Below are positions 2,151 through 29,096 of a stretch of 40,709 bases of DNA, one piece after another. Within the stretch, counting starts at the first letter, position 1. Each line of letters starts with the position of its first letter. Under the pieces are notes generated by a model that did no database searches, was not told where the DNA came from, and saw only the letters and a list, made by a program, of their open reading frames with translations. The stretch comes from Pedosphaera sp. Lineage in GTDB: Bacteria; Verrucomicrobiota; Verrucomicrobiia; Limisphaerales; SIBH01. The position numbers and the translations under genes are program-made. The stretch lies in the NCBI GenBank assembly GCA_031414955.1, contig JANOQV010000113.1:1-40709 (forward strand). Reading direction: 5' to 3'.

Positions 2151-4253
2151 CTACCCTTGCGCCAGCCAGCGCGAGACTTCGCCGCGCAGTTCGCCGCGCT
2201 CTGTCTCGCCCAAACCGCGCGGGTCGAAGCGATGCCGCTGGTGCAGCGCGAGCAGGCGGCGGAGGGAAGGGTTGGGGGTTGAAGGTTGAGGGTTGAGGGC
2301 TGGTGATCTTCCCACCGCCCACCGTCCACCGCCCACCGACTCCTCCACCCGCCGCAGCCACTGGGACCAGTTCTCGCTCGCGGCCCGCTCCAGTCCGCGC
2401 GCCGCGAAATGTTTCTCGATCAGGTAGAAATCGGAGTCGGCTCCGGCGCGCTGGGCGGCGCGGCGCTTTTCCTGACGTTGCGCGCGCCGCTGCTTCCATT
2501 GCTTGCCGAAGGCGAAGCGCACCAGCACCACGATGAGCAGCGGCACGGGCGCGAGCATGAGCCATTTGCGCCACTCGGTCTTGCCCCAGCGGATCTTCGA
2601 GAACTCAAACCACAGGTCGGAGAGGAAATCCTTCACCGGTTGCAGCCACGAGGTGTGCGCGGATTCGGCGGCGTCCCAAGAGGACGGCGTGGTGTCGAAG
2701 TCGATCCAGTTCGTGCCGTTCCAAGCCAGGGTCCAGGCGTGGGCGTGGCGGTCGCGCACCACGTACTTGCTCCCCTTCCCTTCCTGCACCGAGTAGCCCA
2801 CGGCGTAGCGCGTGGGCACGCCGGCATGGCGCAGCAAGAGCGTGGTGGCGGTGGCGAAGTATTCGCAGTGGCCTGACTTGGTGCGCAGGAGGAAGCGCGC
2901 CAGGGCGGTCTCATTGGTCGTGGCGGCGGACGCGGCGGTGAGATAGCGGGCGTATTGGAACTGGCTGGTGAAGAATCTTGCCACCGTGCGCAACGCCTCC
3001 TGCGGCGGCATCTCGCGGCGCAGTCGCAACTCCCTCGCCACCTGGGCCAGGGCGGGTTCCAACTCCTCGAAGGTGCGCAGGTCTTCCTCGCTCCAGGCGG
3101 AGTCGAAGGTCACGCCGCGATCATGGCGTGCCTCGTAAATGGCCAACCCCGGACCGGCGATCATCTTCGCGCCGCCCCAGTAATTGGTCTGCACGTCGCC
3201 CGCCCACAGTCCGGCCACCCCGGCCGCGCCGGTGGGCAGCGGCAGCAAGCCCTGCCCGCCGCGGAAGTAGCCCGCGATGGAGAGGGTGAAGCGCGTGGGC
3301 TTGCGCGGAAGAATCATCCAGGCGCTCGGATCGCTCTCCGAGGGCACGCTGGTGAAGCTGCGGTTTGTCACCGTCCACAGGCTGGTCCCGCGCGAATCCA
3401 ACCGATAGGCATTGAAGCTCGTCTCGCGCAGCAATTCCGGCGGCGCGTCGCCCTCGGTGCGCAGCCGCAGCACGATGCGATCGGAGTTTTTCAAGTGGCC
3501 GATGGAGCCGATGCGGGTGCGGGCCTCGCGGTCGTTGAAGCCCAGTCCGCTGAACTTGGCGAACCAGGTCATGTTCATTTCCTCCAACCGCTTTTGCAGG
3601 CGGAACAATCCGGTGTGCGCGCCGTAGCCCGCCACCGCCACGGCCAGGAACAACGCGCACCACGGGACGAGCGAAAGCCGCCGGGGGCGCAGCGCGAGCA
3701 GCGCCCACGCCACGACCAGCGTGAAGCCGTAGTAGAACACCACGGCCCGTTCGGTGCGCGCGCTCGCCGCCAGCAGACAGAGCGCGACGTAGGGGAACGA
3801 GACATCCACAGTGTCGCGCGGCAGGGTGGAATTCGGGGTGCGCGCCTCCTGTTTGCGCAGCCACCACGAAAAAGTGGCCAGCCCCACGCGCGGCGGGTCG
3901 TTGAACACCTGCGCCAGCAGGAAGGGCAGAAAGATCATCGGGAACCACTGGAACCAGGTCAGGGCCGACTGGCCCGCCTGCCGCATGGCCTCGGGCCGGC
4001 GCCCGGCATGGGCAAAGAAATCGTCCAGCGAAACGGTGCCCTCGTTGACGAGCAAAAACGTGCCCACGCCGATGAACAGCACCGTGCAGATGTTCCAGAG
4101 CCGGTTGAAGTCGGCCTGATTGAGCGACCAGCGCGTCTTGATCACGCGAGATAATTCCAGCGCCAGCCCCGCCAGCAGGCCCAGCCAGAGATGCCCGGTC
4201 TGCCAGCCCCAAAAGAGCAGCGCGGCGAGAACGAGAAGCGGCGGCGTGTTCAT
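2151..4253 (-). CDS. Membrane-anchored transglutaminase-like protein (TgpA-like)
   Basis: N-terminal TM helices; catalytic motifs GHCEYFA, HAHAW, WIDFDTTP; lies downstream of DUF58. Confidence 0.85.
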   Translation of the reverse strand: MNTPPLLVLAALLFWGWQTGHLWLGLLAGLALELSRVIKTRWSLNQADFNRLWNICTVLFIGVGTFLLVNEGTVSLDDFFAHAGRRPEAMRQAGQSALTWFQWFPMIFLPFLLAQVFNDPPRVGLATFSWWLRKQEARTPNSTLPRDTVDVSFPYVALCLLAASARTERAVVFYYGFTLVVAWALLALRPRRLSLVPWCALFLAVAVAGYGAHTGLFRLQKRLEEMNMTWFAKFSGLGFNDREARTRIGSIGHLKNSDRIVLRLRTEGDAPPELLRETSFNAYRLDSRGTSLWTVTNRSFTSVPSESDPSAWMILPRKPTRFTLSIAGYFRGGQGLLPLPTGAAGVAGLWAGDVQTNYWGGAKMIAGPGLAIYEARHDRGVTFDSAWSEEDLRTFEELEPALAQVARELRLRREMPPQEALRTVARFFTSQFQYARYLTAASAATTNETALARFLLRTKSGHCEYFATATTLLLRHAGVPTRYAVGYSVQEGKGSKYVVRDRHAHAWTLAWNGTNWIDFDTTPSSWDAAESAHTSWLQPVKDFLSDLWFEFSKIRWGKTEWRKWLMLAPVPLLIVVLVRFAFGKQWKQRRAQRQEKRRAAQRAGADSDFYLIEKHFAARGLERAASENWSQWLRRVEESVGGGRWAVGRSPALNPQPSTPNPSLRRLLALHQRHRFDPRGLGETERGELRGEVSRWLAQG
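2270..2339. repeat. Heptamer tandem-repeat imperfect palindrome in frame within the transglutaminase gene
   Basis: GGTTGGG GGTTGAA GGTTGAG GGTTGAG (2270-2297) and CCACCGC CCACCGT CCACCGC CCACCGA (2312-2339). Confidence 0.8.
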
Positions 4254-4348
4254 GGGAAAAGGGGCAAGGCAGAAGGAGGGAAACTCAACCCCTGCCTTCC
4301 GCTTTCTTCCTTCACTTCTGCCTTCTTCATTCTTCCTTCCGCCTTCAT
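4250..4348 (-). other. Repeat hairpin spanned by a 32-aa coupling mini-ORF
   Basis: ATG 1 nt after the DUF58 stop; MKAEGRMKKAEVKEESGRQGLSFPPSALPLFP; TGA overlaps the transglutaminase ATG (ATGA); GAAGGCA/GAATGAA-type units and an inverted CCTTCTGCCTT arm. Confidence 0.6.
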
Positions 4349-4349
4349 T

Positions 4350-5777
4350 TCACAGCCTCGCCAGCCCTTCCTCAATTTTGCCCACCTCCAGCACCTGCCA
4401 TGACTCCGGATCATCCGGCCGCCGCTCCAGCGCCGCCGCGCCCGCCTCGCGAACAATCAACACCATCGCCGGCACGCCCATCTGAGTGAGCTGGCGCACG
4501 AGCTGGCGGCGCGGCTCATCCCACGCGAGAAAAATGCAGATGCAGCCGCTCACCGAAGCCGCGTGCACCACCACCAGTTGCTCCAGCGCCGCGAAGGACT
4601 GATGCGGCGCGGGGGCCACCGACGCCAGCAGCTCCAGCATCTGATCCGCGCCACCCAGCCCGCGACCGATGGTGAAGCAAAACGCCTCCGGTCCGATGAA
4701 GAGCAAATCGAGCAGCGATTCCTGGGTGTCGATGGTGCAGGCAAATGATGCCGCCACGGAGACAGCCTCCTCGAAAACCGCCGAATCGACCTGCTTCGAG
4801 GTGGCCCGCCTCGCGCTGCGAGGCGAGTCGGATTCCTGTTCCTCAGACTGGCCACGGCCAGGAGCACGGCTCGCAGCGCGAGCCTTTCCACCTGGAGCTT
4901 TGGATTCGCCGAATGTGTCCAGAATCAGCGCGTGCCGGACGAAGAATTCATCCTGAAACTCCTTCACCACCGGCCGCCCGGTTTTGGCCCAGCTCCGCCA
5001 GTGAATGCGCCGCATCGGATCGCCCGGTCGATAATCCCGCAGCGCCACGAACTCCTCCGACTCGCCAATCGCCGCCGCCAGCGCCACCCCGCCGTGCTGA
5101 TATTGTTGCGACCCCGGCAGCGCCAGCGCGGGCAGTGGATAACGCTTGGGCAGAATGGTCAGCGCACCCGGCGCCTTCACGTTGAGGAACGCGCGGAACA
5201 ATCCGAACGGGTCCGGCCGCGCCACCGTCACCGCGTCGAAGTGCAACACCCCGCGCCGCAGCGGCACCAGTTCCACCTCCACCTGCGCCTCGCCCCGCGG
5301 CGGCAAGGTCGCGAGCGATTGCGGCTTGAGCGCCCGCACCCGCCGCACATCCGGCGGTGCGGTGAAGCGGAACAGCCGCCCGCGTCGCTGCGGCCGGAAC
5401 GTGGCCACGAACTCCGCCAAGCCCGGTCGCGGATCGACCAGCCCATCCAGCACCTGCAACCCCGCCTGCGCCCGTCCCGACAGATTCCGCACCGCCACCG
5501 TGTAGCGCAGCGGCTTCCCCGCGCTGCCGAACTTCGGCAGCAATCGCTCCACGGAAAACTTCGCGCGAAAGAACGGCGCCACCGCCACCGCCGCGACGCC
5601 CAGACAAAGCAACAGCGCAAAGGCCTGATACCCGTGCGACTGCTCCGTATCCGTGGCCATGCCGGCGGTGAGCCACAGCCCCACGAAAACAATCCACCCG
5701 CCCGGCGTAAGCCGCCGCTTCGCCCAATAATTGAGCGAGGAGACGATCCGGTAGAGGCGATAGGCGAGGCGGTTCAT
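4350..5777 (-). CDS. DUF58 domain-containing protein
   Basis: DPFGLF, EFVALRDYRPGDPMRRIHWRSWAKTG, VKEFQDE, FEEAVSVAAS; probable start MNRLAY at 5777. Confidence 0.9.
   Translation of the reverse strand: MNRLAYRLYRIVSSLNYWAKRRLTPGGWIVFVGLWLTAGMATDTEQSHGYQAFALLLCLGVAAVAVAPFFRAKFSVERLLPKFGSAGKPLRYTVAVRNLSGRAQAGLQVLDGLVDPRPGLAEFVATFRPQRRGRLFRFTAPPDVRRVRALKPQSLATLPPRGEAQVEVELVPLRRGVLHFDAVTVARPDPFGLFRAFLNVKAPGALTILPKRYPLPALALPGSQQYQHGGVALAAAIGESEEFVALRDYRPGDPMRRIHWRSWAKTGRPVVKEFQDEFFVRHALILDTFGESKAPGGKARAASRAPGRGQSEEQESDSPRSARRATSKQVDSAVFEEAVSVAASFACTIDTQESLLDLLFIGPEAFCFTIGRGLGGADQMLELLASVAPAPHQSFAALEQLVVVHAASVSGCICIFLAWDEPRRQLVRQLTQMGVPAMVLIVREAGAAALERRPDDPESWQVLEVGKIEEGLARL
4799..4893. repeat. 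REP-like inverted palindrome pair in frame within DUF58
   Basis: AGGTGGCCCGCCTCGCGCTGCGAGGC...GGCTCGCAGCGCGAGCCTTTCCACCT; each arm is self-complementary and the arms are inverted relative to each other. Confidence 0.7.
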
Positions 5778-5808
5778 CTGGGGAAAGGTTCTCCGAACAG
5801 GGAGAATT

Positions 5809-5829
5809 GTCCAAGGTCCAAAGTCCAAG
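5809..5829. repeat. Single arm of a heptamer repeat (GTCCAAG/GTCCAAA x3)
   Basis: GTCCAAG GTCCAAA GTCCAAG with no inverted partner nearby. Confidence 0.65.
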
Positions 5830-5907
5830 GCCGGGAGCGCACTGGGCGCAGCCGCACCAACCCACAAACTCTTTGAACAGGCGTGGCGTTCAGGGCATCA
5901 ATGCCTC

Positions 5908-8622
5908 GTGCATCTCCCAACCGCCACTCTGGCTGTCCTGCTGAGCGCGACCGTGCTCGCGCGGGCGGAGACACCCGGCGGGCGGCATTTCACGGAGAAG
6001 GTCAAGCCGCTGCTGGACTCGCGCTGTGTCAGTTGCCACGGGCCGGACAAGGTGAAGGCGGCGCTGCGCCTCGACTCGCGCGCGGCCATGCTCAAAGGCG
6101 GCGAGAACGGACCGGCGGTGATTCCCGGCAAGCCCAACGACAGCCTCCTGCTCCAGGCCATCATGCACACCAAGAAGGATCTGGAGATGCCGCCCAAGGA
6201 AAGGCTCACCACGAACGACATCGCGGTGTTCAGGCGCTGGATCGAGGAAGGCGCACCGTGGCCCGCGAGCGCGACGAATATGGCCGCGGCCGAACCGATC
6301 AAACCCGGCGAACGGCTCGGCGATGCGTGGAGCGACCCGCGCAATCCCATCGTGAAGATATTTGGCGGGCAACGGCTGGACTTGTGGTCGCTCAAGCCGG
6401 TGCGGCGGGTGGAACCGCCAAAGTCAGTCAGCAGTGAAACAGTAAACAGCAGGTCAGGGAACCACGGCGCGAAGGGTGCGGGCGCGCGCACTGTTTCACG
6501 AATTACTGATTACCCCACTCACAACCCCATCGACCGGTTCATCCACGCCAGGCTCGCGGAGAAACGCCTCCAGCCCGCGCCCGAAGCCGACCGGCGCACG
6601 CTGGCCCGGCGAGTTTATTTCGATCTCACCGGGCTGCCGCCCGCGCCGGAAGAAGTCGCGGCGTTCGTGAACGACACTTCGCCCTCAGCCTACGAGCGGC
6701 TCGTGGACAAGTTGCTGGCCTCGCCCCGCCACGGTGAGCACCAGGCCCGGCTCTGGCTGGATGTGATTCGCTACAGCGACAGCAACGGCTTTGACTGGGA
6801 TGAGTTCCGGCCCAAGGCGTGGCGCTTCCGCGATTACGTCATCCGAGCCTTCAACCAGGACAAGCCGTACGACGAGTTTATCCGCGAGCAACTCGCCGGC
6901 GATGAATTGCTGGCGGGCGCGCCGAAGAACGAGGCGGAGCAGGATGCGCTCGTCGCCACCGGTTACCTGCGGCTCGGCCCGCAGGACAATTCCGCCGGAG
7001 CCTTCAACGAACAGGACCGCAGTCGCGCCGAGTTGTTGGCCGACCTGACGGAGACGACCAGCAGCGCGTTCCTCGGCCTCACCATGTCGTGCAACCGCTG
7101 CCATGATCACAAATTCGATCCGCTCTCGCACGCCGACCATTACCGGCTGCGCGCGTTCTTCGAGCCGGTGAAGTTCGCCGACGACATTCCGCTCGATGTC
7201 GCGCCCGAGCAGGAAATCATCCGCGCGCAGAACAAATCGCTCGATGAAAAGCTCAAGCCATTGCAGGAGCAGCGCGATGCCTTGCTCGAAGTCGTGAAGA
7301 AAAAACTGCGCGAGGAAAAGGCCGCGAAGCTCACACCCGAGGACCGCGCGCTGCTCGACACGCCCAAGGAGAAACGGACGAACGACCTGAAAGACAAGAT
7401 CGCCGCGCTGGAAAAGAAAGTGGAACCGAAGGACAAAGAGATTCAGGCCGCGCTCACGGAGGACGAGAAGAAACAGAACGCCGCGCTCGGAAAGCAGATT
7501 GATGAACTCAAGAAACAGAAGCGCGCCTTCACCCTGGCGCTGTTGATGACGGACAACGTGGAGAAGGTTCCCGTCACCAAAATTCTTTTCCAGGGCAATC
7601 ACAAAGATCCGCGTGACCCGGTGGTGCCGGGCTTCATCTCCGCGCTTGATCCAAACCCGGCGCAGATTCGCAAGGCGCTGAATCCGAAAACCACCGGACG
7701 CCGCCTCACGCTGGCCGATTGGATCGCTTCCACCAACAACCCGCTGACTGCGCGTGTGCTGGTAAACCGCGTCTGGCAGCAGCATTTCGGCAACGGACTC
7801 GTCGCCACGCCGAATGACTTCGGCCTGGCCGGCGCGCGCCCGACACATCCTGAATTGCTCGACTGGCTGGCCAGGGAGTTCGTGCGCGAAGGCTGGTCGT
7901 TGAAGAAGCTGCACCGGCTGATGGTGACGAGCACGGCCTACCGGCGGAGTTCAGTGAACAGGGAATCAGTGAACACTGGCGCAAGAGTCGGCGCGGCCCG
8001 CGCTGTTTCACCGATCACCGGCTCACCGATTACTGATTCACTGACTACTGGTTACTCCCGCCCAAGCATCCGCCGCCTGAGCGCCGAGCAATTGCGCGAC
8101 TCGCTCCTCGCCGTCTCCGGCCTGCTGCAACTCGATCACCTCGGTGGCCCGCCCATCTGGCCCGATCTGCCGGCGGAGATTTTGCAGGCCAACCCCGCCT
8201 TCCTGGATGACAACGAAACGAAGACCAAAGGCTGGTATCCCTCGCCCAAGACGAACCAGAACGTGCGCAGCGTTTTCCTAATTCAGAAAAAGACGGTGCG
8301 CGTGCCGTTCATGGAGACGTTCGACATGCCGGAGAATTCCGTGTCGTGCGCTCGCCGTACCGAATCCATCGTCGCGCCCCAGGCCCTTGCGCTGCTGAAC
8401 AGTTCGCTCACCGCCGAGGCCGCGCGGGCGCTGGCCGGGCGGGTGCAACGTGAAGCCGGTGCCGACACGGCGAAGCAAATCGAGCGCGCCTTCGACCTCA
8501 CGCTTCAACGCCCGCCCGATCAGGACGAACGCCAGGCCTGTTTCACGCTTCTCCAGCAACGCAGTCTGGCCGAACTTTGCCGCGCCTTGGTCAACCTGAA
8601 CGAATTCATCTACCTCGATTGA
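5908..8622 (+). CDS. PSCyt1/DUF1549/DUF1553 planctomycete-type cytochrome c domain protein
   Basis: Signal peptide; CVSCH; MPPK...WIEEGA; NPIDRFI; RRVYFDLTGLPP; CNRCHDHKFDP; NPLTARVLVNRVWQQHFG; THPELLDWLA; PQALALLN; NLNEFIYLD. Confidence 0.93.
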   Translation: MHLPTATLAVLLSATVLARAETPGGRHFTEKVKPLLDSRCVSCHGPDKVKAALRLDSRAAMLKGGENGPAVIPGKPNDSLLLQAIMHTKKDLEMPPKERLTTNDIAVFRRWIEEGAPWPASATNMAAAEPIKPGERLGDAWSDPRNPIVKIFGGQRLDLWSLKPVRRVEPPKSVSSETVNSRSGNHGAKGAGARTVSRITDYPTHNPIDRFIHARLAEKRLQPAPEADRRTLARRVYFDLTGLPPAPEEVAAFVNDTSPSAYERLVDKLLASPRHGEHQARLWLDVIRYSDSNGFDWDEFRPKAWRFRDYVIRAFNQDKPYDEFIREQLAGDELLAGAPKNEAEQDALVATGYLRLGPQDNSAGAFNEQDRSRAELLADLTETTSSAFLGLTMSCNRCHDHKFDPLSHADHYRLRAFFEPVKFADDIPLDVAPEQEIIRAQNKSLDEKLKPLQEQRDALLEVVKKKLREEKAAKLTPEDRALLDTPKEKRTNDLKDKIAALEKKVEPKDKEIQAALTEDEKKQNAALGKQIDELKKQKRAFTLALLMTDNVEKVPVTKILFQGNHKDPRDPVVPGFISALDPNPAQIRKALNPKTTGRRLTLADWIASTNNPLTARVLVNRVWQQHFGNGLVATPNDFGLAGARPTHPELLDWLAREFVREGWSLKKLHRLMVTSTAYRRSSVNRESVNTGARVGAARAVSPITGSPITDSLTTGYSRPSIRRLSAEQLRDSLLAVSGLLQLDHLGGPPIWPDLPAEILQANPAFLDDNETKTKGWYPSPKTNQNVRSVFLIQKKTVRVPFMETFDMPENSVSCARRTESIVAPQALALLNSSLTAEAARALAGRVQREAGADTAKQIERAFDLTLQRPPDQDERQACFTLLQQRSLAELCRALVNLNEFIYLD
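6423..6512. repeat. In-frame palindromic CAGTGAAACAGTAA-family element
   Basis: Left arm CAGTGAAACAGT, right arm ACTGTTTCAC...TTACTGATTAC; encodes SVSSETVNSR...TVSRITDY. Confidence 0.75.
7949..8055. repeat. Second in-frame palindromic element of the same family
   Basis: TCAGTGAACAGGGAATCAGTGAAC...CTGTTTCACCGATCACCGGCTCACCGATTACTGATTCACTGACTACTGGTTAC. Confidence 0.75.
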
Positions 8623-8625
8623 CGA

Positions 8626-8732
8626 AGCGCGACGCACCGACGTCGCGCGAGGCCTCCACTTTCGCAAAGCTTTCGCCACTCCTCACCCACCTCTCAGTTT
8701 CTTGGCCTGGCGCGACGTCGGTGCGTCGCGCT
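8626..8732. repeat. REP-like inverted doublet between convergent genes (possible bidirectional terminator/stabiliser)
   Basis: Perfect 23-bp inverted repeat AGCGCGACGCACCGACGTCGCGC (8626-8648 / 8710-8732); each copy has an internal 8-bp stem and a GAAG/GGAG foot. Confidence 0.8.
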
Positions 8733-8782
8733 CCAATGCAAAAGCGCAGGCACTGGCCTGCGCCTGCTTGGGCATGGACGGA

Positions 8783-9313: not shown

Positions 9314-9409
9314 AATCTGTCCTTCGCTTTCTCGGCGATGTTCATCACCGCCATCTACCAACATGAGACGGGGGCGACGTAAAGTTTCGGTGTGATTGGC
9401 GCGCAGAAT

Positions 9410-9426
9410 TGTTAAGCGGGTGTAAA
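9410..9426. promoter_or_regulatory. Possible OmpR/CpxR-type direct-repeat operator
   Basis: TGTTAA-N5-TGTAAA (11-bp period) in the divergent intergenic region. Confidence 0.3.
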
Positions 9427-9469
9427 AAATGCGGCGTTCCACAAAGAAGCCGCTATTCTCGGCCCCGCC

Positions 9470-11718: not shown

Positions 11719-11914
11719 CTATTTCCGGACTCGGCAAGCTGGCTGCTAAGGGATGCTGATGTTCCTGAGAACCAATATGATTCGACATGAAGTACGGCAG
11801 CCAGCAGCATCCCCAGTGTTGCTGGAAGCCATAAAATCCAAGTTGTTGCCCGCGTGTTTCACCTCCTGGGCGGTTCGGTAAGCCGTTTAGATTGACTCAC
11901 CCCCCTGTTGCGAA

Positions 11915-13387
11915 ATGGTCACGCCGCCAAAATCTGAACTGCCGATGGGCCTGATGAAGGGCTACGATCCGAAGGGCTTTTTCGACGAGATGTTCGACCA
12001 GTCGGGCGAAGTCCTTCCGCACTACCGTAAATTTCAGGAACTGTTCAGCAAACTTTCGCTCGACGAATTCGACGGCAAGCGCCACTCCGTCGATCTGGCC
12101 TTCCTGCGCGGAGGCGTGACCTTCAACGTCTATGGAGACGCACGCGGGCAGGAGCGCATCTTCCCGTTTGACCTCGTGCCCCGGATCATTCCGGCCAGCG
12201 AATGGCAGTTCATCGAACGCGGACTGACCCAGCGCATCATCGCGCTGAATTTGTTCCTGCACGACATCTACCACGAGCAGCGCATCATCAAGGACGGCAT
12301 CATCCCGGCGCATTACATCCTCTCGGGAAAACATTTCCGGCGCGAGTTCGTGAACTGCGCCGTGCCGAAGGACATCTACATCCACGTCTGCGGCACGGAT
12401 TTGATTCGCGGCGCGGACGGCGAATACATGGTCCTGGAGGACAACGGCCGCACCCCGAGCGGGGTGAGCTACGTGCTGGAAAACCGTCGCGCCTTGAAGC
12501 GCGCCTTCCCGCATATGTTCGAAAGCATCGGCGTCCGCCCGGTGGATCATTATCCGCAGGAGCTGTTGAAGATGCTGCAATACATCGCGCCCACGGGCGT
12601 GGCCGATCCGACGCTCGTCGTGCTCACGCCCGGCGCGGCCAACAGCGCCTACTTCGAGCACACCTACCTGGCGCGCCAGATGGGCATTGAGATTGTCGAA
12701 GGCCGCGATTTGGTGGTGAAGGACGCGCACGTTTACATGCGCACGACGAAGGGGCTCAAGCCGGTGCATGTCATCTATCGCCGGCTCGACGATGACTTCC
12801 TCGACCCGACCGTCTTCCGCCGCGACTCGATGCTGGGCGTGCCCGGACTGATCAACGCCTACCGCTCCGGTAACGTCTCGCTGGCCAACTCCGTCGGCAC
12901 CGGCATCGCCGACGACAAGGTGATGTACTACTTCGTGCCGAAGATGATTAAGTACTACCTCGACCAAGATCCGCTCATCCCGAATGTCCCGACCTACCTC
13001 GCCAGCGAGGAGGAAGATCTGAAATACATTCTCGACCACTTGAACAAGCTGGTGGTGAAGGCGGCGAACGAATCCGGCGGTTACGGCATGCTGATGGGGC
13101 CAAAGGCTTCGACGGAGGAAATCGACCAGTTCCGCCGCCGTATTCAGGCCGACCCGCGCAATTACATCGCCCAGCCGATGATCAGCCTGTCGCGCCATCC
13201 GACCTATGGAGACGGCCACTTTGAGGGACGCCACATCGACCTCCGCCCCTACATCGTCTACGGCGAGAAAATCAGCATCGTGCCCGGTGGCCTGACCCGC
13301 GTGGCGCTGCGCAAAGGCTCGCTGGTGGTAAACTCGTCACAGGGTGGCGGGAGCAAGGATACGTGGGTGCTGTATGGAAACGAATAA
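11915..13387 (+). CDS. Circularly permuted type 2 ATP-grasp protein (DUF404/DUF407)
   Basis: [67 protein letters not shown]; start could be 11945 or 11954. Confidence 0.93.
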
Positions 13388-13496
13388 GGCCAACTTTGAA
13401 CCTCGAACTTTGAACTTTGAACTTCGAACTCGGAGTTCGCGTTCGAGCGCTTTGTTCAAGGTTCAAAGTTCAAGGTTCAAAGTTCAAAGTTCTTAA
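13374..13496 (+). other. AACTTTG/GTTCAAA heptamer hairpin (13392-13492) spanned by a 40-aa coupling mini-ORF
   Basis: [40 protein letters not shown]; overlaps the upstream gene by 14 nt; TAA ends 2 nt before ATG 13499. Confidence 0.65.
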
Positions 13497-13498
13497 AA

Positions 13499-14602
13499 AT
13501 GCTCTCCCGCGTTGCCAACTCCCTCTACTGGATGTCGCGCTACATTGAGCGCGCCGAAAACCTCGCGCGCATCCTCGACGTGAACCTCCAGTTGCTCCTC
13601 GACCTGCGCAGCTCGGACGACTCGTCCTTGCGTGACCACTGGCTGCCCATCGTGCAGGCCACCGGGGATGAAGAGTTGTTCGAACGACTCCATGGCCGCG
13701 CCACCGCCGCCGCCGTGGCCGAGTTCATGGTCTTCCAGGAAACGAATCCGAATTCCATCGTGTCGTCCATCTGTCAGGCGCGTGAAAACGCCCGCATGGT
13801 GCGTGACCAAATCACCAGCGAAATCTGGGAGGAGTTAAATCGCCTTTATCTCTTCGTCACCTCGCCGCAGGCCCGGCATGTCTGGACGCAAAGTCCCACG
13901 GAGTTTTTCAACCAGATCAAGGCCAGCTCGCTGCATCTCATCGGTTCGAGCTACTCGACGCTCTTCCGCAGCGAAGGCTGGTGGTTCAGCGAGGCCGGCA
14001 AAGTCATCGAGCGCGCGGACAAAACCTCGCGCATCCTCGACATCCGCTACCAGATGCTGCCCGAGCGCGGCTTCCCCGACACCGTCAGCCAGGATGAATC
14101 CCTCGGCTGGTCGGCCATTCTGCGCTCGTGCAGCGCGTGGGACGCCTACAAGTCCATCCACGGCGCGGATGTTTCGCCGAAGCTGGTCGCGGAGTTCCTG
14201 ATTCTCAACGAGGATTTTCCCCGATCGATTCGCTTCTGCGTCACCCAGTTAAACAAGGCGCTCCGCCACATTTCCGGCGTGCCGGATGGCCGCTTTGTCA
14301 ACGACGCTGAAAAACTTTCCGGCCGGCTGGTGGCTCAACTTCAATTCACGAGCATCGAGGAGATTGCCGAGTTCGGTCTGCACGGCTACCTCGACGAAAT
14401 CCAGAAGAAGCTAAATGACATCGGCGAGGCGCTCTTCAACGCCTACATCTTCCACGCCTTCAACACGGCGCTGACGGACCACTTCGTGCAGCAGGAGGAA
14501 CAGCAGCAGCAGCAGTGCGGGAAAGTAATCAGTGAAACAGTAATCAGTCATCAGTGCCGCCTCGCACCGATGACGACTGCCTCACCGATTACTGATTACT
14601 GA
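13499..14602 (+). CDS. Alpha-E domain protein (DUF403) with Q/E-rich tail and repeat-derived extension
   Basis: MLSRVANSLYWMSRYIERAEN, ARENAR, ERADKTSRILD, FPRSIRFC; ends QQEEQQQQQ followed by CGKVISETVISHQ...PITDY. Confidence 0.92.
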   Translation: MLSRVANSLYWMSRYIERAENLARILDVNLQLLLDLRSSDDSSLRDHWLPIVQATGDEELFERLHGRATAAAVAEFMVFQETNPNSIVSSICQARENARMVRDQITSEIWEELNRLYLFVTSPQARHVWTQSPTEFFNQIKASSLHLIGSSYSTLFRSEGWWFSEAGKVIERADKTSRILDIRYQMLPERGFPDTVSQDESLGWSAILRSCSAWDAYKSIHGADVSPKLVAEFLILNEDFPRSIRFCVTQLNKALRHISGVPDGRFVNDAEKLSGRLVAQLQFTSIEEIAEFGLHGYLDEIQKKLNDIGEALFNAYIFHAFNTALTDHFVQQEEQQQQQCGKVISETVISHQCRLAPMTTASPITDY

Positions 14603-14607
14603 TTACT
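14524..14607. repeat. AGTAATC/GATTACT heptamer palindrome containing the alpha-E stop
   Basis: AGTAATCAGTGAAACAGTAATCAGT...GATTACTGATTACTGATTACT. Confidence 0.85.
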
Positions 14608-14612
14608 TTTTC

Positions 14613-17600
14613 ATGTCCATCCACGTCGCCCTCTTCCACAAAACGCATTACACGTACAGCAAAGCCGTGGGCCACGGCCCGCATGTCGTGCGGTTGCGGC
14701 CCGCGCCGCATTGCCGGACCAAGATTCTCAGCTACTCGCAGAAGATCACCGGCGGCGAGCATTTCATCAACTGGCAGCAGGACCCGTTCGCGAACTGGAA
14801 CGCGCGGCTGGTCTTCGAGGGCAAGATGAAGGAACTGTGCGTCGAGGTGGAACTCGTCGCGGAGATGGCGGTCCACAATCCGTTCGACTTTTTCATCGAT
14901 GAGTCGGCGCAGACGTATCCGTTCGTTTACGAGCCGGTCCTGAAGAAGGAACTCGCGCCCTTCATGGAGTTGCCTTCGCCCACCACGAAGCATCTCGCGC
15001 TCGTGGATGAACTGCTCGCGAAGTATCTCACGGCCAAGGCGCGCACGATTGATTTCCTCGTCGAGGTCAACCAGCGGCTTCAGCAGGACATCAAATACAC
15101 CATCCGCCTGGAACCCGGCGTGCAGACGCCCGAGGAAACGCTGACCAATGGCACCGGCTCGTGCCGCGACACCGGCTGGCTGCTCGTGCAGACGATGCGT
15201 TCGATGGGTTTCGCCGCACGCTTTGTTTCCGGCTACCTGATTCAACTCGCGCCGGACGTGAAGTCGCTCGACGGGCCGAGCGGCACCGAAATTGATTTCA
15301 CCGATCTGCACGCGTGGTGCGAAGTCTATTTGCCGGGCGCGGGCTGGATTGGTTTTGATCCGACTTCGGGTCTGCTCGCGGGCGAAGGACACATCCCGCT
15401 CAGTTGCACGCCGGAGCCGAGCAGCGCCGCGCCGGTGACTGGCGGAGTGGACAAGTGCGAGTCGAAGCTGGTCCACGAGATGAAGGTCACGCGCATCTAC
15501 GAATCGCCGCGCGTCACCAAGCCTTATACCGAAGAGCAGTGGAAGGAGATTGAGAAACTCGGCCACGCCATCGACGCCGACCTCACGAAGCACGACGTGC
15601 GGCTCACGATGGGCGGCGAGCCGACGTTTATTTCCATCGACGACCCCGACGGCCCGGAGTGGAACTTCACCGCCACGTCGCCGAAGAAGCGCATTCTCTC
15701 GGACACGTTGCTCAAACGGCTGCGCGGCAAGTTCGCCCCCGGCTCGCTCGTGCATTACGGGCAGGGCAAGTGGTATCCCGGCGAGTCGCTGCCGCGCTGG
15801 GCCTTCGGTTGTTACTGGCGCAAGGATGGTTTGCCCATCTGGCAGAAGGACGAACTGATCGCCGACGAAGCGGCGAATTACCAACACACGAACGAGCACT
15901 CGGCGAAATTCATCGCGGCGTTGAGCACCCGGCTTGGCGCGGACCCGAAGTGGATCATGCCCAGCTTCGAGGATCCGTTTTATCACGTCTGGAAAGAACG
16001 CCGTCTCCCGACCAACGTGGACCCGCACAAGGCCGATCTGAAGAAGGAAGAGGAGCGCGTTCGCCTCGCGAAGATTCTGGAGCAGGGACTCGACAGCGTC
16101 GTCGGTCACGCTCTGCCCATCCAGCGGGCCTGGAAGAGTCACGCGCCGGTCTGGGTCAGCGGCCCGTGGTTCCTGCGCGCCGAAAAACTCTACCTCGCGC
16201 CCGGAGACTCGCCGATGGGGCTGCGGCTCCCGCTCGATTCGCTGCCGTGGGTCAAAGAGTCGGACTACCCCTACGTCCACGAACTCGATCCGACGGCGAA
16301 GCGCCCGCCGCTGCCTTCGCCCGAGGAATTTCGCCAGCGCTACCTGCGCACCGACACGCCCGCGCGCCGCAGCGCCGTAGCGCTCCGTCGTCGCGGGCAA
16401 AGCGAGGAGGACGCGAAGAAGGAAGCACTCCGTGAAGACCCGACACGCGTCCCGCAGCCCGGTGAATCCGCTTCGTGGATTGTCCGCACCGCGCTCTGCG
16501 TCGAGCCGCGCGGAGGCAAACTCCACGTCTTCATGCCGCCCGTCGCGACGCTTGAGGACTATCTCGAACTCGTCGCCGCCGTCGAAGACACCGCCGCGCA
16601 ACTCGGCACGCCCGTCGCCATCGAAGGCTACACGCCGCCGCGCGATTCGCGTCTGAACGTGCTCAAGGTCACGCCCGACCCAGGCGTGATCGAAGTGAAT
16701 CTGCATCCGAGCAAATCGTGGGACGAACTCGTGGACCGCACCACCGTGCTCTACGAGGAAGCGCGCCAGACGCGGCTCGGCACTGAGAAGTTCATGGTGG
16801 ACGGACGCCACACCGGCACCGGCGGCGGTAATCACATTCTGATCGGCGCGGAGACGCCCATTGATTCGCCTGTGCTGCGCCGCCCTGATTTGCTGCGCTC
16901 GCTGATCGCCTACTGGCAGAATCATCCGTCGCTCAGTTGGTTGTTCAGCGGCCTGTTCGTCGGTCCCACGTCGCAAGCACCGCGCGTGGACGAGGCGCGC
17001 AACGATTCGCTCTACGAACTCGAAGTCGCGTTCAAGGAACTCGACCGGCAGTTGAAAATCTCAGCGCAACCTTCTGTTGCAGGTGCAACAAAAGGTTGCA
17101 ACGTTCCGCCTTGGTTAGCCGACCGCCTGTTCCGCAACCTGCTCATCGACTCGAGCGGCAACACGCACCGCGCCGAGTTCAGCATCGACAAGCTCTACTC
17201 GCCCGACGGCAGCGCGGGGCGTCTCGGTCTCGTCGAGATGCGCGCCTTCGAGATGCCGCCGCACGCGCGCATGAGCCTGGCGCAACATCTTCTGCTGCGC
17301 GGACTCGTGGCCAAGTTCTGGCAGCATCCTTACACCAACGATCTCGTGCGTTGGGGCACCGACATCCACGACCGCTGGATGTTGCCGCACTTCTGCGAGA
17401 CGGATTTCAAGGATGTCATCCACGACCTGCGCGACGCGGGCTTTCCCTTCGAGTTCGACTGGTTCACGCCGCACTTTGAGTTTCGTTTCCCGCGCATCGG
17501 CGATTTCGCGCAGCGTGACGTGCAGGTCGAACTCCGCACCGCACTCGAACCGTGGCATGTCCTCGGTGAAGAAGGTGCGACGGGCGGCACCGTGCGTTAC

Positions 17601-18026
17601 GTGGACAGCTCACTCGAACGCCTGCAAGTGAAAGCCCGCGGTCTTGTGGGCGAACGCTTCGTCCTCACGGTCAATGGCCACCGCGTCCCGCTGCATTCGA
17701 CTGGGACCAACGGCGAAGCCGTCGCCGGCGTCCGCTACCGCGCGTGGCAGCCGCCGAACTGCCTGCAACCCACGATTCCCTCGCACGCCCCGCTCGTGTT
17801 CGATCTCTACGACACCTGGAACAAACGCTCGCTCGGCGGCTGCCAGTATCACGTCGCGCATCCCGGCGGACGCAGCTACGACACTTTCCCCGTGAACAGC
17901 TACGAAGCGGAGGCGCGCCGCCTCGGACGCTTCTTCACCCACGGTGCGACGCAGGGGAAATTCACGCCGCCGCCGCAGACTGAGAACGTGGACTTCCCGT
18001 TCACGCTCGACCTGAGAAATGCCTGA
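14613..18026 (+). CDS. Transglutaminase N-terminal/core domains fused to DUF2126 putative amidoligase
   Basis: GSCRDTGWLLVQ, DLHAWCEVYLPGAGWIGFDPT, LTMGGEPTF, VTPDPGVIEVN, GTGGGNH, GNTHRAEF, EMRAFEMPPH, FTLDLR. Confidence 0.93.
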   Translation: MSIHVALFHKTHYTYSKAVGHGPHVVRLRPAPHCRTKILSYSQKITGGEHFINWQQDPFANWNARLVFEGKMKELCVEVELVAEMAVHNPFDFFIDESAQTYPFVYEPVLKKELAPFMELPSPTTKHLALVDELLAKYLTAKARTIDFLVEVNQRLQQDIKYTIRLEPGVQTPEETLTNGTGSCRDTGWLLVQTMRSMGFAARFVSGYLIQLAPDVKSLDGPSGTEIDFTDLHAWCEVYLPGAGWIGFDPTSGLLAGEGHIPLSCTPEPSSAAPVTGGVDKCESKLVHEMKVTRIYESPRVTKPYTEEQWKEIEKLGHAIDADLTKHDVRLTMGGEPTFISIDDPDGPEWNFTATSPKKRILSDTLLKRLRGKFAPGSLVHYGQGKWYPGESLPRWAFGCYWRKDGLPIWQKDELIADEAANYQHTNEHSAKFIAALSTRLGADPKWIMPSFEDPFYHVWKERRLPTNVDPHKADLKKEEERVRLAKILEQGLDSVVGHALPIQRAWKSHAPVWVSGPWFLRAEKLYLAPGDSPMGLRLPLDSLPWVKESDYPYVHELDPTAKRPPLPSPEEFRQRYLRTDTPARRSAVALRRRGQSEEDAKKEALREDPTRVPQPGESASWIVRTALCVEPRGGKLHVFMPPVATLEDYLELVAAVEDTAAQLGTPVAIEGYTPPRDSRLNVLKVTPDPGVIEVNLHPSKSWDELVDRTTVLYEEARQTRLGTEKFMVDGRHTGTGGGNHILIGAETPIDSPVLRRPDLLRSLIAYWQNHPSLSWLFSGLFVGPTSQAPRVDEARNDSLYELEVAFKELDRQLKISAQPSVAGATKGCNVPPWLADRLFRNLLIDSSGNTHRAEFSIDKLYSPDGSAGRLGLVEMRAFEMPPHARMSLAQHLLLRGLVAKFWQHPYTNDLVRWGTDIHDRWMLPHFCETDFKDVIHDLRDAGFPFEFDWFTPHFEFRFPRIGDFAQRDVQVELRTALEPWHVLGEEGATGGTVRYVDSSLERLQVKARGLVGERFVLTVNGHRVPLHSTGTNGEAVAGVRYRAWQPPNCLQPTIPSHAPLVFDLYDTWNKRSLGGCQYHVAHPGGRSYDTFPVNSYEAEARRLGRFFTHGATQGKFTPPPQTENVDFPFTLDLRNA

Positions 18027-20661
18027 GGCCGGCGAGAATAAAATTGGCGGTGAAAGTTCGCGCACGTTAAAAACTTCGCCAGCGATGACCCAGGTCACCC
18101 CGGATGCCCAAACTTCCCGGCCACGCCCGAGCCTGCTTGTGAATTACAAGCCGGGCACGCCGGTTTTTGATGAACTGGTGGACGGTGAAAACTTGCGCCC
18201 TCACTACGCCGGGCTGATGCAGGGTCTGGATGAACTCGGCCTCGCGGAACTCAAGCGCCGCGACGTCACCTGCCAGCGCCTCGTCCACGAGCAGGGCATC
18301 ACCTATAACGTCTATGGCGACCCGCGCGGCATGGAGCGTCCGTGGCAGCTCGACCCGGTTCCGTTCGTCATCGCGCCGGAGGAGTGGCGCAAGCTGGAAG
18401 CCGGACTGATTCAACGCGCCACGTTGCTGAACAAAATTCTCGCCGACTGCTACGGTGCGCAGGATTTGATTCGCTCGCGCTGGCTTTCGCCGGCGCTGAT
18501 TTTCGCGCAGCCGGATTTCCTGCGCCCTTGTCACGGGCTGCGCGTGCCGGGTGACAGGTTCCTGCATTTCTACGCCGCGGATCTCGCGCGTTCGCCGGAT
18601 GGACAGTGGTGGGTCATCTCGGATCGCACGCAGATTCCCACCGGCATGGGCTACGCGCTGGCGAACCGGTTGGTCACCTCGCGCATTCTGCCCGAGTCCT
18701 TCCGCGACAACCATGTGCATCGTCTCGCCGGATTCTTCCGCGACACGCAGCGCACGCTGGTGGAACTCGCCCCGCACCAGAACAGCGATCCACGCGTGGT
18801 CCTGCTGACGCCGGGGCCGCACAATGAAACTTATTTCGAGCAGACGTATCTCGCGCGCTACCTCGGCTACATGCTGGTCGAGGGCCAGGATCTGACGGTG
18901 CGGGACGATCACGTTTATCTCAAAACGCTGAACGGTCTCGAACGCGTGGACGTGATTCTGCGTCGCGTGGATGACGACTTTTGCGACCCGTTGGAACTGC
19001 GCAACGACTCGATGCTCGGCGTGCCGGGACTGCTCGAAGCGGCGCGCGCCGGCAATGTGACCATCTCGAACGCGCTCGGCAGCGGGCTGCTGCAAAGCCC
19101 GGCGTTCATGTCGTTCCTGCCGGAACTGTGCCAGCATTTGCTCGGGGAAGAACTCAAGCTGCCGTCCATCGCGACCTGGTGGTGCGGGCAGGAATCCGCG
19201 CGCCGTTACGTGCTTGAACATCTCGACGAGTTGTATTTCAAGTCCGCCTTCCGCACGCGCACGCGCGCGACGAACCCAGACCGGCCGATGACCGCCACCG
19301 AGCGCGAGGAATTGCGCCGCCACATCCAGTTCGATCCGGATTTGTTTGTCGCGCAGGAACATGTCGAACTGTCCACCGCGCCGTCCTGGAATGGCGGCGC
19401 GATCACGCCGCGGTCCGTGGGATTGCGCACGTATCTGGTCGCGAAGGGCGACAGCTACACCGTCATGCCCGGCGGTTTGACGCGCGTGGCGCCGGACGCG
19501 GACGGACGGTTCATCTCCATGCAGCGTGGCGGCAGCAGCAAGGACACCTGGATCATTTCCGACACGCCGGTGGAGGAAATTTCGCTGCTCTCCACCTCCA
19601 GCCAGGCCATTGAGTTGCGCCGCACCGGGAACAACCTGCCTTCGCGCCTCGCGGATAATTTCTTCTGGATGGGCCGTTACTCGGAACGGGCGGACGCCAC
19701 GGCGCGGCTGCTGCGGAGCGCGTTGCAACGCTTCAACCCCGAGCGTACCGGCAGCGCCCTGCCGCTGCTCGCGCCGGTGTTGCGAACGCTCGAAGTTCAC
19801 GGACAGCTCTCCGACGTGATGGGCCACCGGGAGTTGCGGCAGAACCCCGAAGCCTTCGAGGCGGAACTGCTCTCGGCAATTTTTGATCCCGCCACTCCGG
19901 GCAGCCTCAGCAGCACGATCGATCATCTGTTCCGCGTGGGCATGCAGGTGCGGGATCGCACTTCGACGGACATGTGGCGCGTGATCACCCGGCTCAACGA
20001 CCGGCTCTCCACGCCCACGGCCAGTCTCGTGATGCTGGCGGGCGACGCGGTGGCGGTGCTGAACGAAGCGCTCTTGAGCCTCGCGGCCTTCCACGGACTG
20101 GCGCGCGAGAACATGACGCGCGCGCAGGCCTGGCGTTTCATCGACATGGGAATGCGCATCGAGCGCGCGGTCTATCTCTGCACCTTGCTGGATTCCACGC
20201 TGCGTTCGCCGGACGCGGAAAATCCCAGCGTGCTCGAAGCCGTGCTGGAAGTGGCGGACAGTTCCATCACCTATCGCTCGCGCTACAGTTTGCTGCCGCA
20301 CATCGCGCCGGTGTTTGATCTCGTGTTTCTCGATGACAAGAACCCGCGTTCCGTCCTCTTCCAAATCAACCAGTTGATGAAGCACTTCGACCGGGTGCCG
20401 CTCGAACTCAACTCGGGCAAGCCTGGTTCCGGCAAAGCCATCCTGCACGACTGTCACGCCCGTCTCGAACGCTGCGACACGCGGGAACTCGCCGGATTGA
20501 AAGGCCCCGGGCACGAGAGCAAGGTGGGGCGACTCATCCAGCAGACGCTGCGAGACCTGCCGAAGCTGTCCGACGCCATCGCCGCGAGCTACTTCGCGCA
20601 CTCGGCCATTTCGCGCACCGGACGCGAAGGGGACGCGGGGTGGGATTGGAGCGGGCGATGA
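18019..20661 (+). CDS. Circularly permuted ATP-grasp fused to alpha-E domain
   Basis: RPWQLDPVP, YFEQTYLARYLG, RRVDDDFCDPLELR, MPGGLTRV, SKDTW, then LPSRLADNFFWMGRYSER, NPRSV; start 18019 overlaps the upstream stop (18085 is an alternative). Confidence 0.92.
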   Translation: MPEAGENKIGGESSRTLKTSPAMTQVTPDAQTSRPRPSLLVNYKPGTPVFDELVDGENLRPHYAGLMQGLDELGLAELKRRDVTCQRLVHEQGITYNVYGDPRGMERPWQLDPVPFVIAPEEWRKLEAGLIQRATLLNKILADCYGAQDLIRSRWLSPALIFAQPDFLRPCHGLRVPGDRFLHFYAADLARSPDGQWWVISDRTQIPTGMGYALANRLVTSRILPESFRDNHVHRLAGFFRDTQRTLVELAPHQNSDPRVVLLTPGPHNETYFEQTYLARYLGYMLVEGQDLTVRDDHVYLKTLNGLERVDVILRRVDDDFCDPLELRNDSMLGVPGLLEAARAGNVTISNALGSGLLQSPAFMSFLPELCQHLLGEELKLPSIATWWCGQESARRYVLEHLDELYFKSAFRTRTRATNPDRPMTATEREELRRHIQFDPDLFVAQEHVELSTAPSWNGGAITPRSVGLRTYLVAKGDSYTVMPGGLTRVAPDADGRFISMQRGGSSKDTWIISDTPVEEISLLSTSSQAIELRRTGNNLPSRLADNFFWMGRYSERADATARLLRSALQRFNPERTGSALPLLAPVLRTLEVHGQLSDVMGHRELRQNPEAFEAELLSAIFDPATPGSLSSTIDHLFRVGMQVRDRTSTDMWRVITRLNDRLSTPTASLVMLAGDAVAVLNEALLSLAAFHGLARENMTRAQAWRFIDMGMRIERAVYLCTLLDSTLRSPDAENPSVLEAVLEVADSSITYRSRYSLLPHIAPVFDLVFLDDKNPRSVLFQINQLMKHFDRVPLELNSGKPGSGKAILHDCHARLERCDTRELAGLKGPGHESKVGRLIQQTLRDLPKLSDAIAASYFAHSAISRTGREGDAGWDWSGR

Positions 20662-20858
20662 AAACAAAAGGCATCCTTGCTCATGGAGGCTCGGGGCGTG
20701 AAACCCCAAATCCCAAAGCCCAAACCCCAGAGATACTGCAAGCTGCAAGCTTCAAGCCGGAAATTCTCGGACTGAGTGTGTGCCAATTGGTATTTGGAAC
20801 TTGGTGCTTCTCTGGGGTTTGGGATTTGGGATTTGGGGTTTCTTCATTCCGGCCATGA
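20658..20858 (+). other. CCCAAAT/ATTTGGG heptamer hairpin (20701-20841) spanned by a 66-aa coupling mini-ORF
   Basis: ATGA overlap with the upstream stop (20658-20661) and ATGA overlap with the downstream start (20855-20858). Confidence 0.7.
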
Positions 20859-21730
20859 CCTACGACATCACGCATCGCACGACTTACGATTACGCCGCGC
20901 CGGTGAGCGTGTCGCATCATGTGGCGCGGCTGGAGCCGCGCGCGGCAGGGACGCAAGAGGTCGGCTCCTTCGCGCTGCGAATTTCTCCCCAGCCCACGCT
21001 GCGCAAATCGCGCGAGGATTACTTCGGCAACCGCCTTTGCTCGTTCAGCATCCAGCAAGTCCATGAGCGGCTGGAGACCGTGACCAGCAGCCGCGTGACG
21101 GTTCACCCGCCGCAGTTCGTGGCCCCGGAACAGTCGCCCGCGTGGGAGACGGTGGCGCGGCTGTTCCGCGATCCGGTTTCGCCGGAGGTTATCGCGCCGT
21201 ATCAGTTCGTCTTCGATTCGCCGCAGGTGCGCGGCTCGTTTGAACTGGCCGACTACGCGCTGGAAAGTTTTCGTCATGACACGCCGTTGTTGGCGGGCGC
21301 GGCGGATTTGATGCGCCGCCTTCACCTCGATTTCAAATACGACCCCAAGGCCACCACCGTCGCGACGCCGCTGGAGGAAGTCTGGAAAAAGCGGCGTGGG
21401 GTCTGCCAGGATTTCGCGCATCTGAGCATCGCCTGCCTGCGCTCGCTCCGCTTGCCTGCGCGCTACGTGAGCGGCTACCTGCGCACGCACGCGGTGCCCG
21501 GCCAGGCCCGGCTGGTGGGAGCGGACGCGTCGCACGCGTGGTTCTCGCTCTTCAGCCCCGAGGCGGGCTGGGTGGATTTTGATCCCACGAACAATGTCCG
21601 GCCCGCCGAGGAGCACATCACCGTGGCCTGCGGTCGCGACTTCGGCGACGTGAGTCCGCTGAGTGGAATTCTCACGGGCGGTGGCGCGCACGAGGTGCGA
21701 GTCTCGGTGGATGTGGCACCGGTGGAGTGA
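20855..21730 (+). CDS. Transglutaminase family protein (Bact_transglu_N + core)
   Basis: MTYDITHRTTYDY, DYFGN, GVCQDFAH, ARYVSGYL, SHAW, FDPTN, GRDFGDVSP. Confidence 0.93.
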   Translation: MTYDITHRTTYDYAAPVSVSHHVARLEPRAAGTQEVGSFALRISPQPTLRKSREDYFGNRLCSFSIQQVHERLETVTSSRVTVHPPQFVAPEQSPAWETVARLFRDPVSPEVIAPYQFVFDSPQVRGSFELADYALESFRHDTPLLAGAADLMRRLHLDFKYDPKATTVATPLEEVWKKRRGVCQDFAHLSIACLRSLRLPARYVSGYLRTHAVPGQARLVGADASHAWFSLFSPEAGWVDFDPTNNVRPAEEHITVACGRDFGDVSPLSGILTGGGAHEVRVSVDVAPVE

Positions 21731-21906
21731 GATTTCAAAATTCCAAAACCCAAATTCCAAATTCCAAACAAGCTCCAAAGTCCCCAATTCCAAATCCGAA
21801 AACGGCCCGACCGCAGCCAGCATCCTTGGGACTTGGCCGTTGGAATTTGTTTGGCATTTGGGATTTGGAATTTATCCCTGCACCCCGCTTTCTCCTGACT
21901 CCCTAA
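21727..21906 (+). other. CCAAATT/AATTTGG-type heptamer hairpin (21735-21873) spanned by a 59-aa coupling mini-ORF
   Basis: GTGA overlap with the upstream stop; frame open (VRFQNSKTQIPNSKQAPK...IWDLEFIPAPRFLLTP) to TAA 21904-21906, 1 nt before ATG 21908. Confidence 0.65.
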
Positions 21907-21907
21907 C

Positions 21908-27431: not shown

Positions 27432-27477
27432 GCCGAGGCTGGCATGTTTGCTGCCTTCGCGTTAAATGATCGGAACG

Positions 27478-29081: not shown

Positions 29082-29096
29082 CCCGGCCCGATGGTT

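Follow-up and report, generated by a model that had tools for sequence, protein, structure and literature searches.

In the 40,709-nt window analysed here (positions 1 to 40,709 of contig JANOQV010000113.1, Pedosphaera sp., assembly GCA_031414955.1), elements made of inverted arrays of 7-nt repeat units (heptamer hairpins) lie between the genes of operons, and four of them are each crossed by a short open reading frame (mini-ORF) coupled to the upstream stop and to the downstream start. Across the 6.5-Mb source assembly (G000, of which the window is contig C113) such double-coupled frames far exceed frame-shifted controls. With a probability of about 0.7, judged from sequence comparison, the hairpins are palindromic inserts, likely mobile, which are kept at coupled operon junctions where a stop-to-start frame crosses them. 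Directly seen were the inserts, the fact that close relatives may have or lack them, the surplus of double-coupled frames and the fitting of the frame site by site; from these we infer that the frames are translated.

Bridging frames across heptamer hairpins in the source assembly

A purpose-made hexamer gene caller gave 4649 genes in G000, and arrays of period 7 numbered 363, against 8–19 at neighbouring periods. Heptamer hairpins numbered 160. Co-directional genes flank 117 of them (17 of these overlap the end of a gene), divergent genes 21 and convergent genes 1, while 18 are intragenic and 3 sit at contig edges. Convergent positions were depleted: they hold one of the 139 intergenic hairpins, compared with 238 of the 1690 spacers 60–250 nt long (p 6e-8). 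The mean stem energy was −67 kcal/mol and the median position was 10 nt past the stop and 15 nt ahead of the start; in the elements printed, the repeat units begin directly after the stop. Several unrelated families of heptamer units are present, and the 5' arm is rich in A and C and poor in G. Many elements of G000, as well as loci L176-L204, share a common arm build of 2–3 heptamers, a 4-nt linker of the A(C/G)AA type and 2 further heptamers, mirrored in the other half of the element; so regular a build points to a structure that is recognised more than to free slippage.

The test set comprised 84 hairpins in 50–300-nt spacers between two confidently called co-directional genes. Coupling was called strict when the mini-ORF started at −4..+1 and stopped at −4..+2, and shifted controls were made by adding 1 or 2 bases in the loop, leaving both ends, the composition and the gene calls unchanged. 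The genome-wide count of double-coupled frames against controls, proposed in an earlier note on this DNA, gave 33 of 84 strict bridges, far above the loop insertions of +1 nt (1/84) and +2 nt (5/84); an insertion of +3 nt left 33/84 (strict bridges against pooled frame-shift controls, Fisher p 7e-13). Other strict controls per 84 gave 11.6 (chimeras), 4.9 (shuffles) and 4.0 (length-matched plain spacers), and 55 of 1132 plain co-directional spacers were bridged. At a tolerance of −14..+10 the bridged hairpins numbered 51 against 2 and 8 in the +1 and +2 controls, and at −25..+15 they numbered 55 against 6 and 11. Where the hairpin fills the gap (n=57), a mini-ORF was found in 42 and an N-terminal extension in 5. 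By the counts of 51/84 and 42/57 about 60–75% of hairpins carry a mini-ORF, and the original claim that every hairpin is bridged was too strong; arms with at least 3 stop triplets were bridged in just 3 of 11 cases.

The details of the frames agree with this excess. Stops in the bridging frame numbered 17, against 37 and 31. Of the 30 hairpin junctions of the form NTGA..NTGA, 21 had a spacer length of 1 modulo 3, at which the two ends are joined; for plain junctions the figure was 81 of 224. Thirty-five of the 55 bridges start at a −4 overlap and 26 end at one, the other ends lying at −19 to +5; both ends of the mini-ORFs show the stop/start overlap or gap under ~20 nt expected of termination-reinitiation coupling, a distance limit taken from PMC10666635. 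Non-heptamer hairpins showed an excess too (14 of 127 bridged, against 2 and 5 in shifted controls), and inserts that look like repetitive extragenic palindromes (REP) also carried bridges in G000, less often. No bridging excess was found in spacers without hairpins (28/664 against 25 and 29), nor were N-terminal extensions alone enriched (11/84 against 13.8 in plain spacers) or two-step relays (4–5/84, a class that the shifted controls inflate).

Chance bridging, produced by stop-poor repeats, frequent ATGA or GTGA overlaps and the gene caller, has a negligible probability. The commonest units are indeed stop-free in both directions and NTGA is also frequent at plain junctions (507 and 492 of 1132), but the +1 and +2 controls keep ends, composition and gene calls and yet drop the bridges from 33 to 1 and 5, and the homology-anchored junctions described below agree with bridging.

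As a separate observation, arrays of the AATGACG and GTTGAGA types (e.g. C9:11588, C32:6008) consist of stop-bearing units, so that a start codon overlaps a stop codon at −4 once per 7 nt. Perfect arrays of this kind would give chains of five-codon ORFs, and such elements are mostly without a single bridging frame.

Elements and junctions in the window

The four mini-ORFs reported earlier were confirmed in the sequence, each stop-free and with the junctions claimed. Their downstream starts were chosen identically by the purpose-made hexamer gene caller. The mini-ORFs, elements and flanking genes are as follows (gene families from Pfam).

2151..4253, minus strand: transglutaminase-like membrane protein gene, downstream of element 1 (Pfam and gene caller)
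4250..4348, minus strand: mini-ORF 1, 32 aa; starts +1 nt from the DUF58 stop and ends in an ATGA overlap with the transglutaminase start
4261..4348: element 1, asymmetric AAGGCAG-type heptamer element, weak hairpin (z −0.3)
4350..5777, minus strand: DUF58 family gene, upstream of element 1 (Pfam; start from the gene caller, open frame to 5867)
11945..13387, plus strand: circularly permuted ATP-grasp gene, upstream of element 2 (Pfam and gene caller)
13374..13496, plus strand: mini-ORF 2, 40 aa; junctions −14/+2
13392..13492: element 2, AACTTTG/GTTCAAA heptamer hairpin with 38-nt arms (z −7.8)
13499..14602, plus strand: alpha-E gene, whose C-terminal extension crosses the fifth hairpin (Pfam)
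14522..14609: fifth hairpin, AGTAATC/GATTACT, crossed by the upstream alpha-E ORF (z −6.9)
14613..18026, plus strand: transglutaminase/DUF2126 gene (Pfam)
18085..20661, plus strand: ATP-grasp/alpha-E fusion gene, upstream of element 3 (Pfam and gene caller; open frame from 18019)
20658..20858, plus strand: mini-ORF 3, 66 aa; ATGA at both ends
20700..20842: element 3, AAACCCC/TGGGATT heptamer hairpin with 49-nt arms (z −9.3)
20855..21730, plus strand: transglutaminase gene 1 (Pfam and gene caller)
21727..21906, plus strand: mini-ORF 4, 59 aa; GTGA/+1
21734..21873: element 4, TTCCAAA/TTTGGAA heptamer hairpin (z −3.3)
21908..22738, plus strand: transglutaminase gene 2 (Pfam and gene caller)

The elements are thus hosted by two Pfam-supported operons, one running from DUF58 to the transglutaminase-like gene and the other an ATP-grasp/alpha-E/transglutaminase cluster. 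The PVC-type domains in the window make an origin in Verrucomicrobiota probable. Elements 2–4 fold far better than shuffles; element 1, whose 5' arm is long and whose 3' arm is short, folds no better and was missed by the hairpin finder. The fifth hairpin, absent from the earlier note, has no mini-ORF, and the alpha-E stop lies 10 nt before the next start. The crossing rule is also served by C-terminal read-through, as it is by N-terminal fusion and by in-frame intragenic position. DNA contigs from one sequencing run, possibly of the source sample, match 14120-14694 and 21458-22300 without differences, indels in the hairpins not being assessable. Among Rfam covariance models at gathering score, a tRNA was the sole match in the window and the elements matched none.

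Orthologous junctions in related genomes

At the junction of element 1 the relatives have a bare ATGA or GTGA overlap in two, a 10-nt gap in one and inserts of 88–472 nt in six, so that 7 of 10 genomes hold an insert there. Three of the six inserts share the outer arm family of G000 and contain nested palindromes, while the other three are unrelated to it (a hexamer repeat, a REP-like palindrome and an AATGACG-type repeat). Five of the six filled relatives are bridged −4/−4, including a 159-codon frame over 472 nt. The junction of element 2 holds hairpins of differing units in 5 of 9 genomes, four of which are bridged by a single frame and one (G005) by two frames in series. At the junction of element 3, five relatives show a bare ATGA and three a gap of 4–11 nt; differing hairpins fill it in five genomes including G000, and four of these are bridged. 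The fifth-hairpin junction is filled in 7 of 9 genomes, in all seven of which a C-terminal extension reads through. The insert of element 4 was found in G000 only among the 8 genomes compared.

Eight other junctions were surveyed after two artefact rows (gaps −768 and −138) had been dropped; a ninth target junction had no ortholog. Overlaps or gaps of at most 12 nt made up 28 of 53 rows, compared with 557 of 2607 over the whole genome. Of the 9 orthologs filled by a hairpin 7 were bridged, and each of the two shifted controls gave 0 of 9.

Frame, peptide and construction of the elements

The suggestion that the frame matters rather than the product is borne out by the frame excess over shifted controls together with the orthologous junctions. 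The accompanying statement that the peptides are unrelated does not hold for all of them: the peptides of elements 3 and 4, like most of the 55 found across the genome, share heptad motifs dictated by the DNA repeat. Since all three frames of a 7-mer array give one heptad, the likeness of the peptides follows from the DNA. It is highly improbable that the peptides are functional small membrane-targeted proteins with a basic N-terminal half and a W/F-rich C-terminal half: that pattern is common to most G000 peptides, and N-terminally fused copies look like signal peptides by eye, but the heptad is the same in all three frames, the orthologous junctions encode unrelated peptides of 31–159 aa, and no Pfam or NCBIfam family was found above noise for the mini-ORF peptides.

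Fused copies were observed at C56:11724, C249:6011, C184:45155, C152:30940 and C193:4605 of G000, where hairpin peptides are joined to the N-terminus of the downstream protein and, by eye, have the basic-then-hydrophobic look of signal peptides or of a prepilin-type leader. These leader-like fusions are possibly an exaptation of the repeat.

Mycobacterial interspersed repetitive units (MIRUs) are one short sequence family whose frame is fixed by the element. A construction of this kind, in which insertion duplicates the ATGA and the element carries the frame so that bridging is automatic and needs no selection at each site, would account for the change from an empty ATGA to ATGA..ATGA at some sites (the element 3 junction, C159:74678) and for the many −4 overlaps among the 55 bridges (26 ends, 35 starts). 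We hold it to be very unlikely. Of 18 arm linkers, 7, 4 and 7 were read in the three phases, and the linker-to-linker lengths fall in all three classes; with all three linker phases in use, the element brings no frame of its own. The spacers range from ~90 to 230 nt, and sites whose empty allele is TAG-CC-ATG or TAA-ACC-ATG are bridged too, with a new stop and start. Stop-bearing repeat copies are also altered where they fall in frame: in element 2 two AACTTTG copies with a would-be in-frame TGA read CGA, and the out-of-frame TGAs are kept. The bridging frame is tuned per site and is not built into the element.

Replication in congeners and other phyla

In congeners, 35 junctions chosen by BLAST likeness to the elements gave 11 strict bridges against 1 and 1 in the controls, and 16 against 2 and 4 at the wider tolerance. 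In a further 24 congener junctions the strict bridges numbered 5 (controls 2 and 2) and the wider ones 11 (controls 2 and 4). The counts are not independent, since the genomes are related and some few loci occur in both sets. A hairpin pattern scan of the genome collection gave an estimated ~910 stretches, and the 117 shown include records titled Verrucomicrobiota, Acidobacteriota, Planctomycetota, Bacteroidota, Patescibacteria and others. The cross-phylum count was made with the gene model trained on G000 and excluded 15 of 80 loci of low GC and 37 with short flanks. It gave a smaller excess outside the genus (4/30 strict and 7/30 wider, against 0–1). A cruder count by an ORF rule (2/48 strict and 5/48 wider, against 0–2) was discarded since strands were miscalled. 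Bridging is a lineage- and site-dependent property and not a fixed part of the repeat.

Five records titled Klebsiella (L085, L101, L105, L107, L137) contain hairpins with verrucomicrobial-like bridges, at 63–66% GC where printed; the titles may be wrong.

Proposed mechanism and weighing of the evidence

In the proposed mechanism a ribosome would terminate at the upstream stop and restart on the mini-ORF, where it would unwind the stem and then restart at the next gene. Copies without a crossing frame would be purged as polar, and untranslated copies would in addition be exposed to Rho and RNase III, both of which are encoded in G000. No Shine-Dalgarno (SD) enrichment was found in G000 (275 against 257 of 3374; the 16S 3' end, which would hold the anti-SD, was not found in the assembly with three short motifs), and starts beside a strong stem would in that case depend on coupling. 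Polarity would be expected from this lack of enrichment, from stems of −67 kcal/mol ending ~15 nt before the start and from the presence of Rho and RNase III. Coupling requires overlaps or very short gaps (PMC10666635). The idea in the earlier note that the inserts are non-polar gained support, as by the bridge excess and the orthologous junctions they look non-polar by virtue of the coupled ORF.

Several observations weigh against tolerance at coupled junctions as the whole account. At −14..+10, 22 of the 84 hairpins lack both a mini-ORF and an N-terminal extension (17 when two-step relays are allowed), so that crossing of a hairpin by a frame is not obligatory, and all gene starts come from one purpose-made caller. 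At the junction of element 4, 5 of 7 relatives have an uncoupled, empty 43-nt spacer with no obvious coupling to preserve. G009 has two orthologous junctions that are filled and unbridged, at one of which two long open stretches lie in neighbouring frames, like a single-base shift, real or made in assembly. Simple tolerance also fails to predict that some junctions are hairpin-filled in the majority of relatives. To these are added the smaller excess outside the genus and, in other phyla, many copies between convergent genes, with few bridges in Acidobacteriota and Bacteroidota.

The high occupancy of certain junctions by hairpins of differing sequence (5/9 at element 2, 7/9 at the fifth hairpin, 7/10 at element 1) would rather suit a selected regulatory device, in which translation of the mini-ORF holds the stem open and low ribosome flow lets it form, followed by an RNase III cut or Rho termination, possibly with a four-helix-bundle protein as reader. 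The single convergent position among 139 intergenic hairpins (against 238/1690 spacers), the presence of Rho and RNase III, the A/C-rich, G-poor 5' arm and the four-helix-bundle genes between similar arms all speak for it. Yet the insert is missing from the same junctions in very close relatives, unrelated palindrome families are bridged likewise, and the stems of the G000 hairpins show no RNA-strand asymmetry and no sign of RNA-level tuning: G-U is not in excess over A-C (122 G-T against 103 A-C, p 0.23), and the two strands do not differ in folding energy. On balance we regard such a device as unlikely.

The four-helix-bundle genes belong to PF05635, which we take to be the 23S rRNA intervening-sequence protein family. 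Four of them stand in operon junctions of G000 (C217:28957-29472, C137:15523-16006, C241:17845-18535 and C32:21022-21503; L001-L004), flanked by inverted heptamer arms (three found by scan, one by eye), and in three of the four translation is apparently coupled up to the gene. In the C217 cassette the 3' arm is crossed by a GTGA..ATGA mini-ORF and the 5' arm is not. The hairpins may be cargo-less relatives of PF05635 and GxxExxY cassettes. It is doubtful that they form the active core of a translation-gated RNA system, so far undescribed and spread over several phyla. Elements of such a system would target stop/start junctions, take each other's place with the relay rebuilt each time, and act as switches by which the operon message is cut or terminated once ribosomes no longer cross; the four-helix-bundle proteins encoded between the same arms would bind or mobilise them.

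GxxExxY (PF13366) genes at C19:21043-21417, C301:22777-23247 and C184:108821-109273 (L005-L007) have inverted 9-mer brackets by eye, and the C301 copy is missing from several relatives by BLAST coordinates. The REP-associated tyrosine transposase (RAYT) was rejected as a partner, as no heptamer array lies near any of the 12 Y1_Tnp matches in G000.

Comparison with known systems

Literature searches, in which subscription journals were mostly outside the scope, found no description of heptamer hairpins with bridging ORFs. The earlier note knew of no description of the architecture, but MIRUs and the short ORFs of integron attC sites are precedents. MIRUs (Supply et al. 1997, as given in review PMC12548453) are described as mobile repeats at start codons with a −4-coupled ORF, whose insertion is likely harmless. 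The present elements resemble them as small, apparently mobile inserts at start codons with variable occupancy and an internal ORF ending at −4 (26/55). They differ, in a comparison of features and not of sequences, in being long 7-mer palindromes of several unrelated families in another phylum, in a frame not fixed by the element, in the many sites without ATGA duplication and in coupling also by read-through or fusion.

The attC short ORFs relieve a hairpin block of translation by termination-reinitiation (Jacquier et al. 2009, as given in review PMC8876359). A palindrome between co-directional genes crossed by a short ORF is common to both systems, and among experimental precedents for the mechanism the attC case comes nearest. 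In contrast to attC sites, which serve an integrase as substrates within cassette arrays, the heptamer elements lie in conserved ordinary operons (attC boxes and an integrase were not searched for).

Abundant intergenic 7-mer arrays, mostly co-directional and near stops and starts, are described for Xanthomonas, Nostoc and Beggiatoaceae in the available parts of PMC4692102 and PMC4679880, where a translational role is also proposed; in contrast to the present elements, no coupled bridging ORF is described in those parts, and the repeats of Beggiatoaceae are direct and do not form hairpins. The REP/REPIN palindromes that go with RAYT transposases are dispersed, variable in occupancy and abundant in a verrucomicrobium (PMC3733652). 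The heptamer elements are unlike them in their build, longer arms, near absence from convergent spacers and lack of a RAYT link. They also differ from the four-helix-bundle cassettes, as the elements of the window carry no PF05635 gene. On the features tested, the elements work like MIRU and attC ORFs and are members of neither. New are the genome-wide scale, the long heptamer palindromes, the tuning of the frame per site and its recurrence across unrelated inserts at one junction.

Tolerance at coupled junctions would give a testable reason for the location of bacterial heptamer repeats that have long been unexplained, and translation probably extends over hundreds of spacers that count as "intergenic" in such genomes. 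The junctions amount to a natural experiment on coupling, in which one junction is refilled by unrelated inserts of 88–472 nt and a stop-to-start frame is usually present; its being kept across unrelated refills fits reinitiation that needs direct overlap rather than scanning. The ideas derived from MIRUs and attC sites would be extended from single families to a genome-wide rule, and a route would be given from repeats to new protein ends and to leaders resembling signal peptides.

Other features of the window

Two further heptamer features lie within genes of the window.

2268..2338: in-frame heptamer arrays near the 3' end of the transglutaminase-like gene
~7955..8056 (approximate ends): heptamer inverted repeat, in frame within the DUF1553 domain of the 5908-8622 gene

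At the element 4 junction (21730-21908) the 43-nt spacer of G003, G004, G005, G009 and G024 (L015-L022) is conserved and constant in length across genera; it may represent a small cis element that G000 has lost or replaced. Directly after the stop of the 5908-8622 gene, between convergent genes, lies a GC-rich non-heptamer palindrome (8626-8732) with 29-nt arms that are 97% complementary, and its family was found elsewhere in G000 too. The region 24267-29168 may be an island at a tRNA: besides the tRNA gene at 29097-29168 it contains an MmeI-type restriction-modification gene and a VapB-like/PIN pair. A 74-nt direct repeat of 82% identity lies at 39219-39292 and 40044-40117, the 3' end of the cytochrome gene 36875-39277 being thus duplicated 825 nt downstream.

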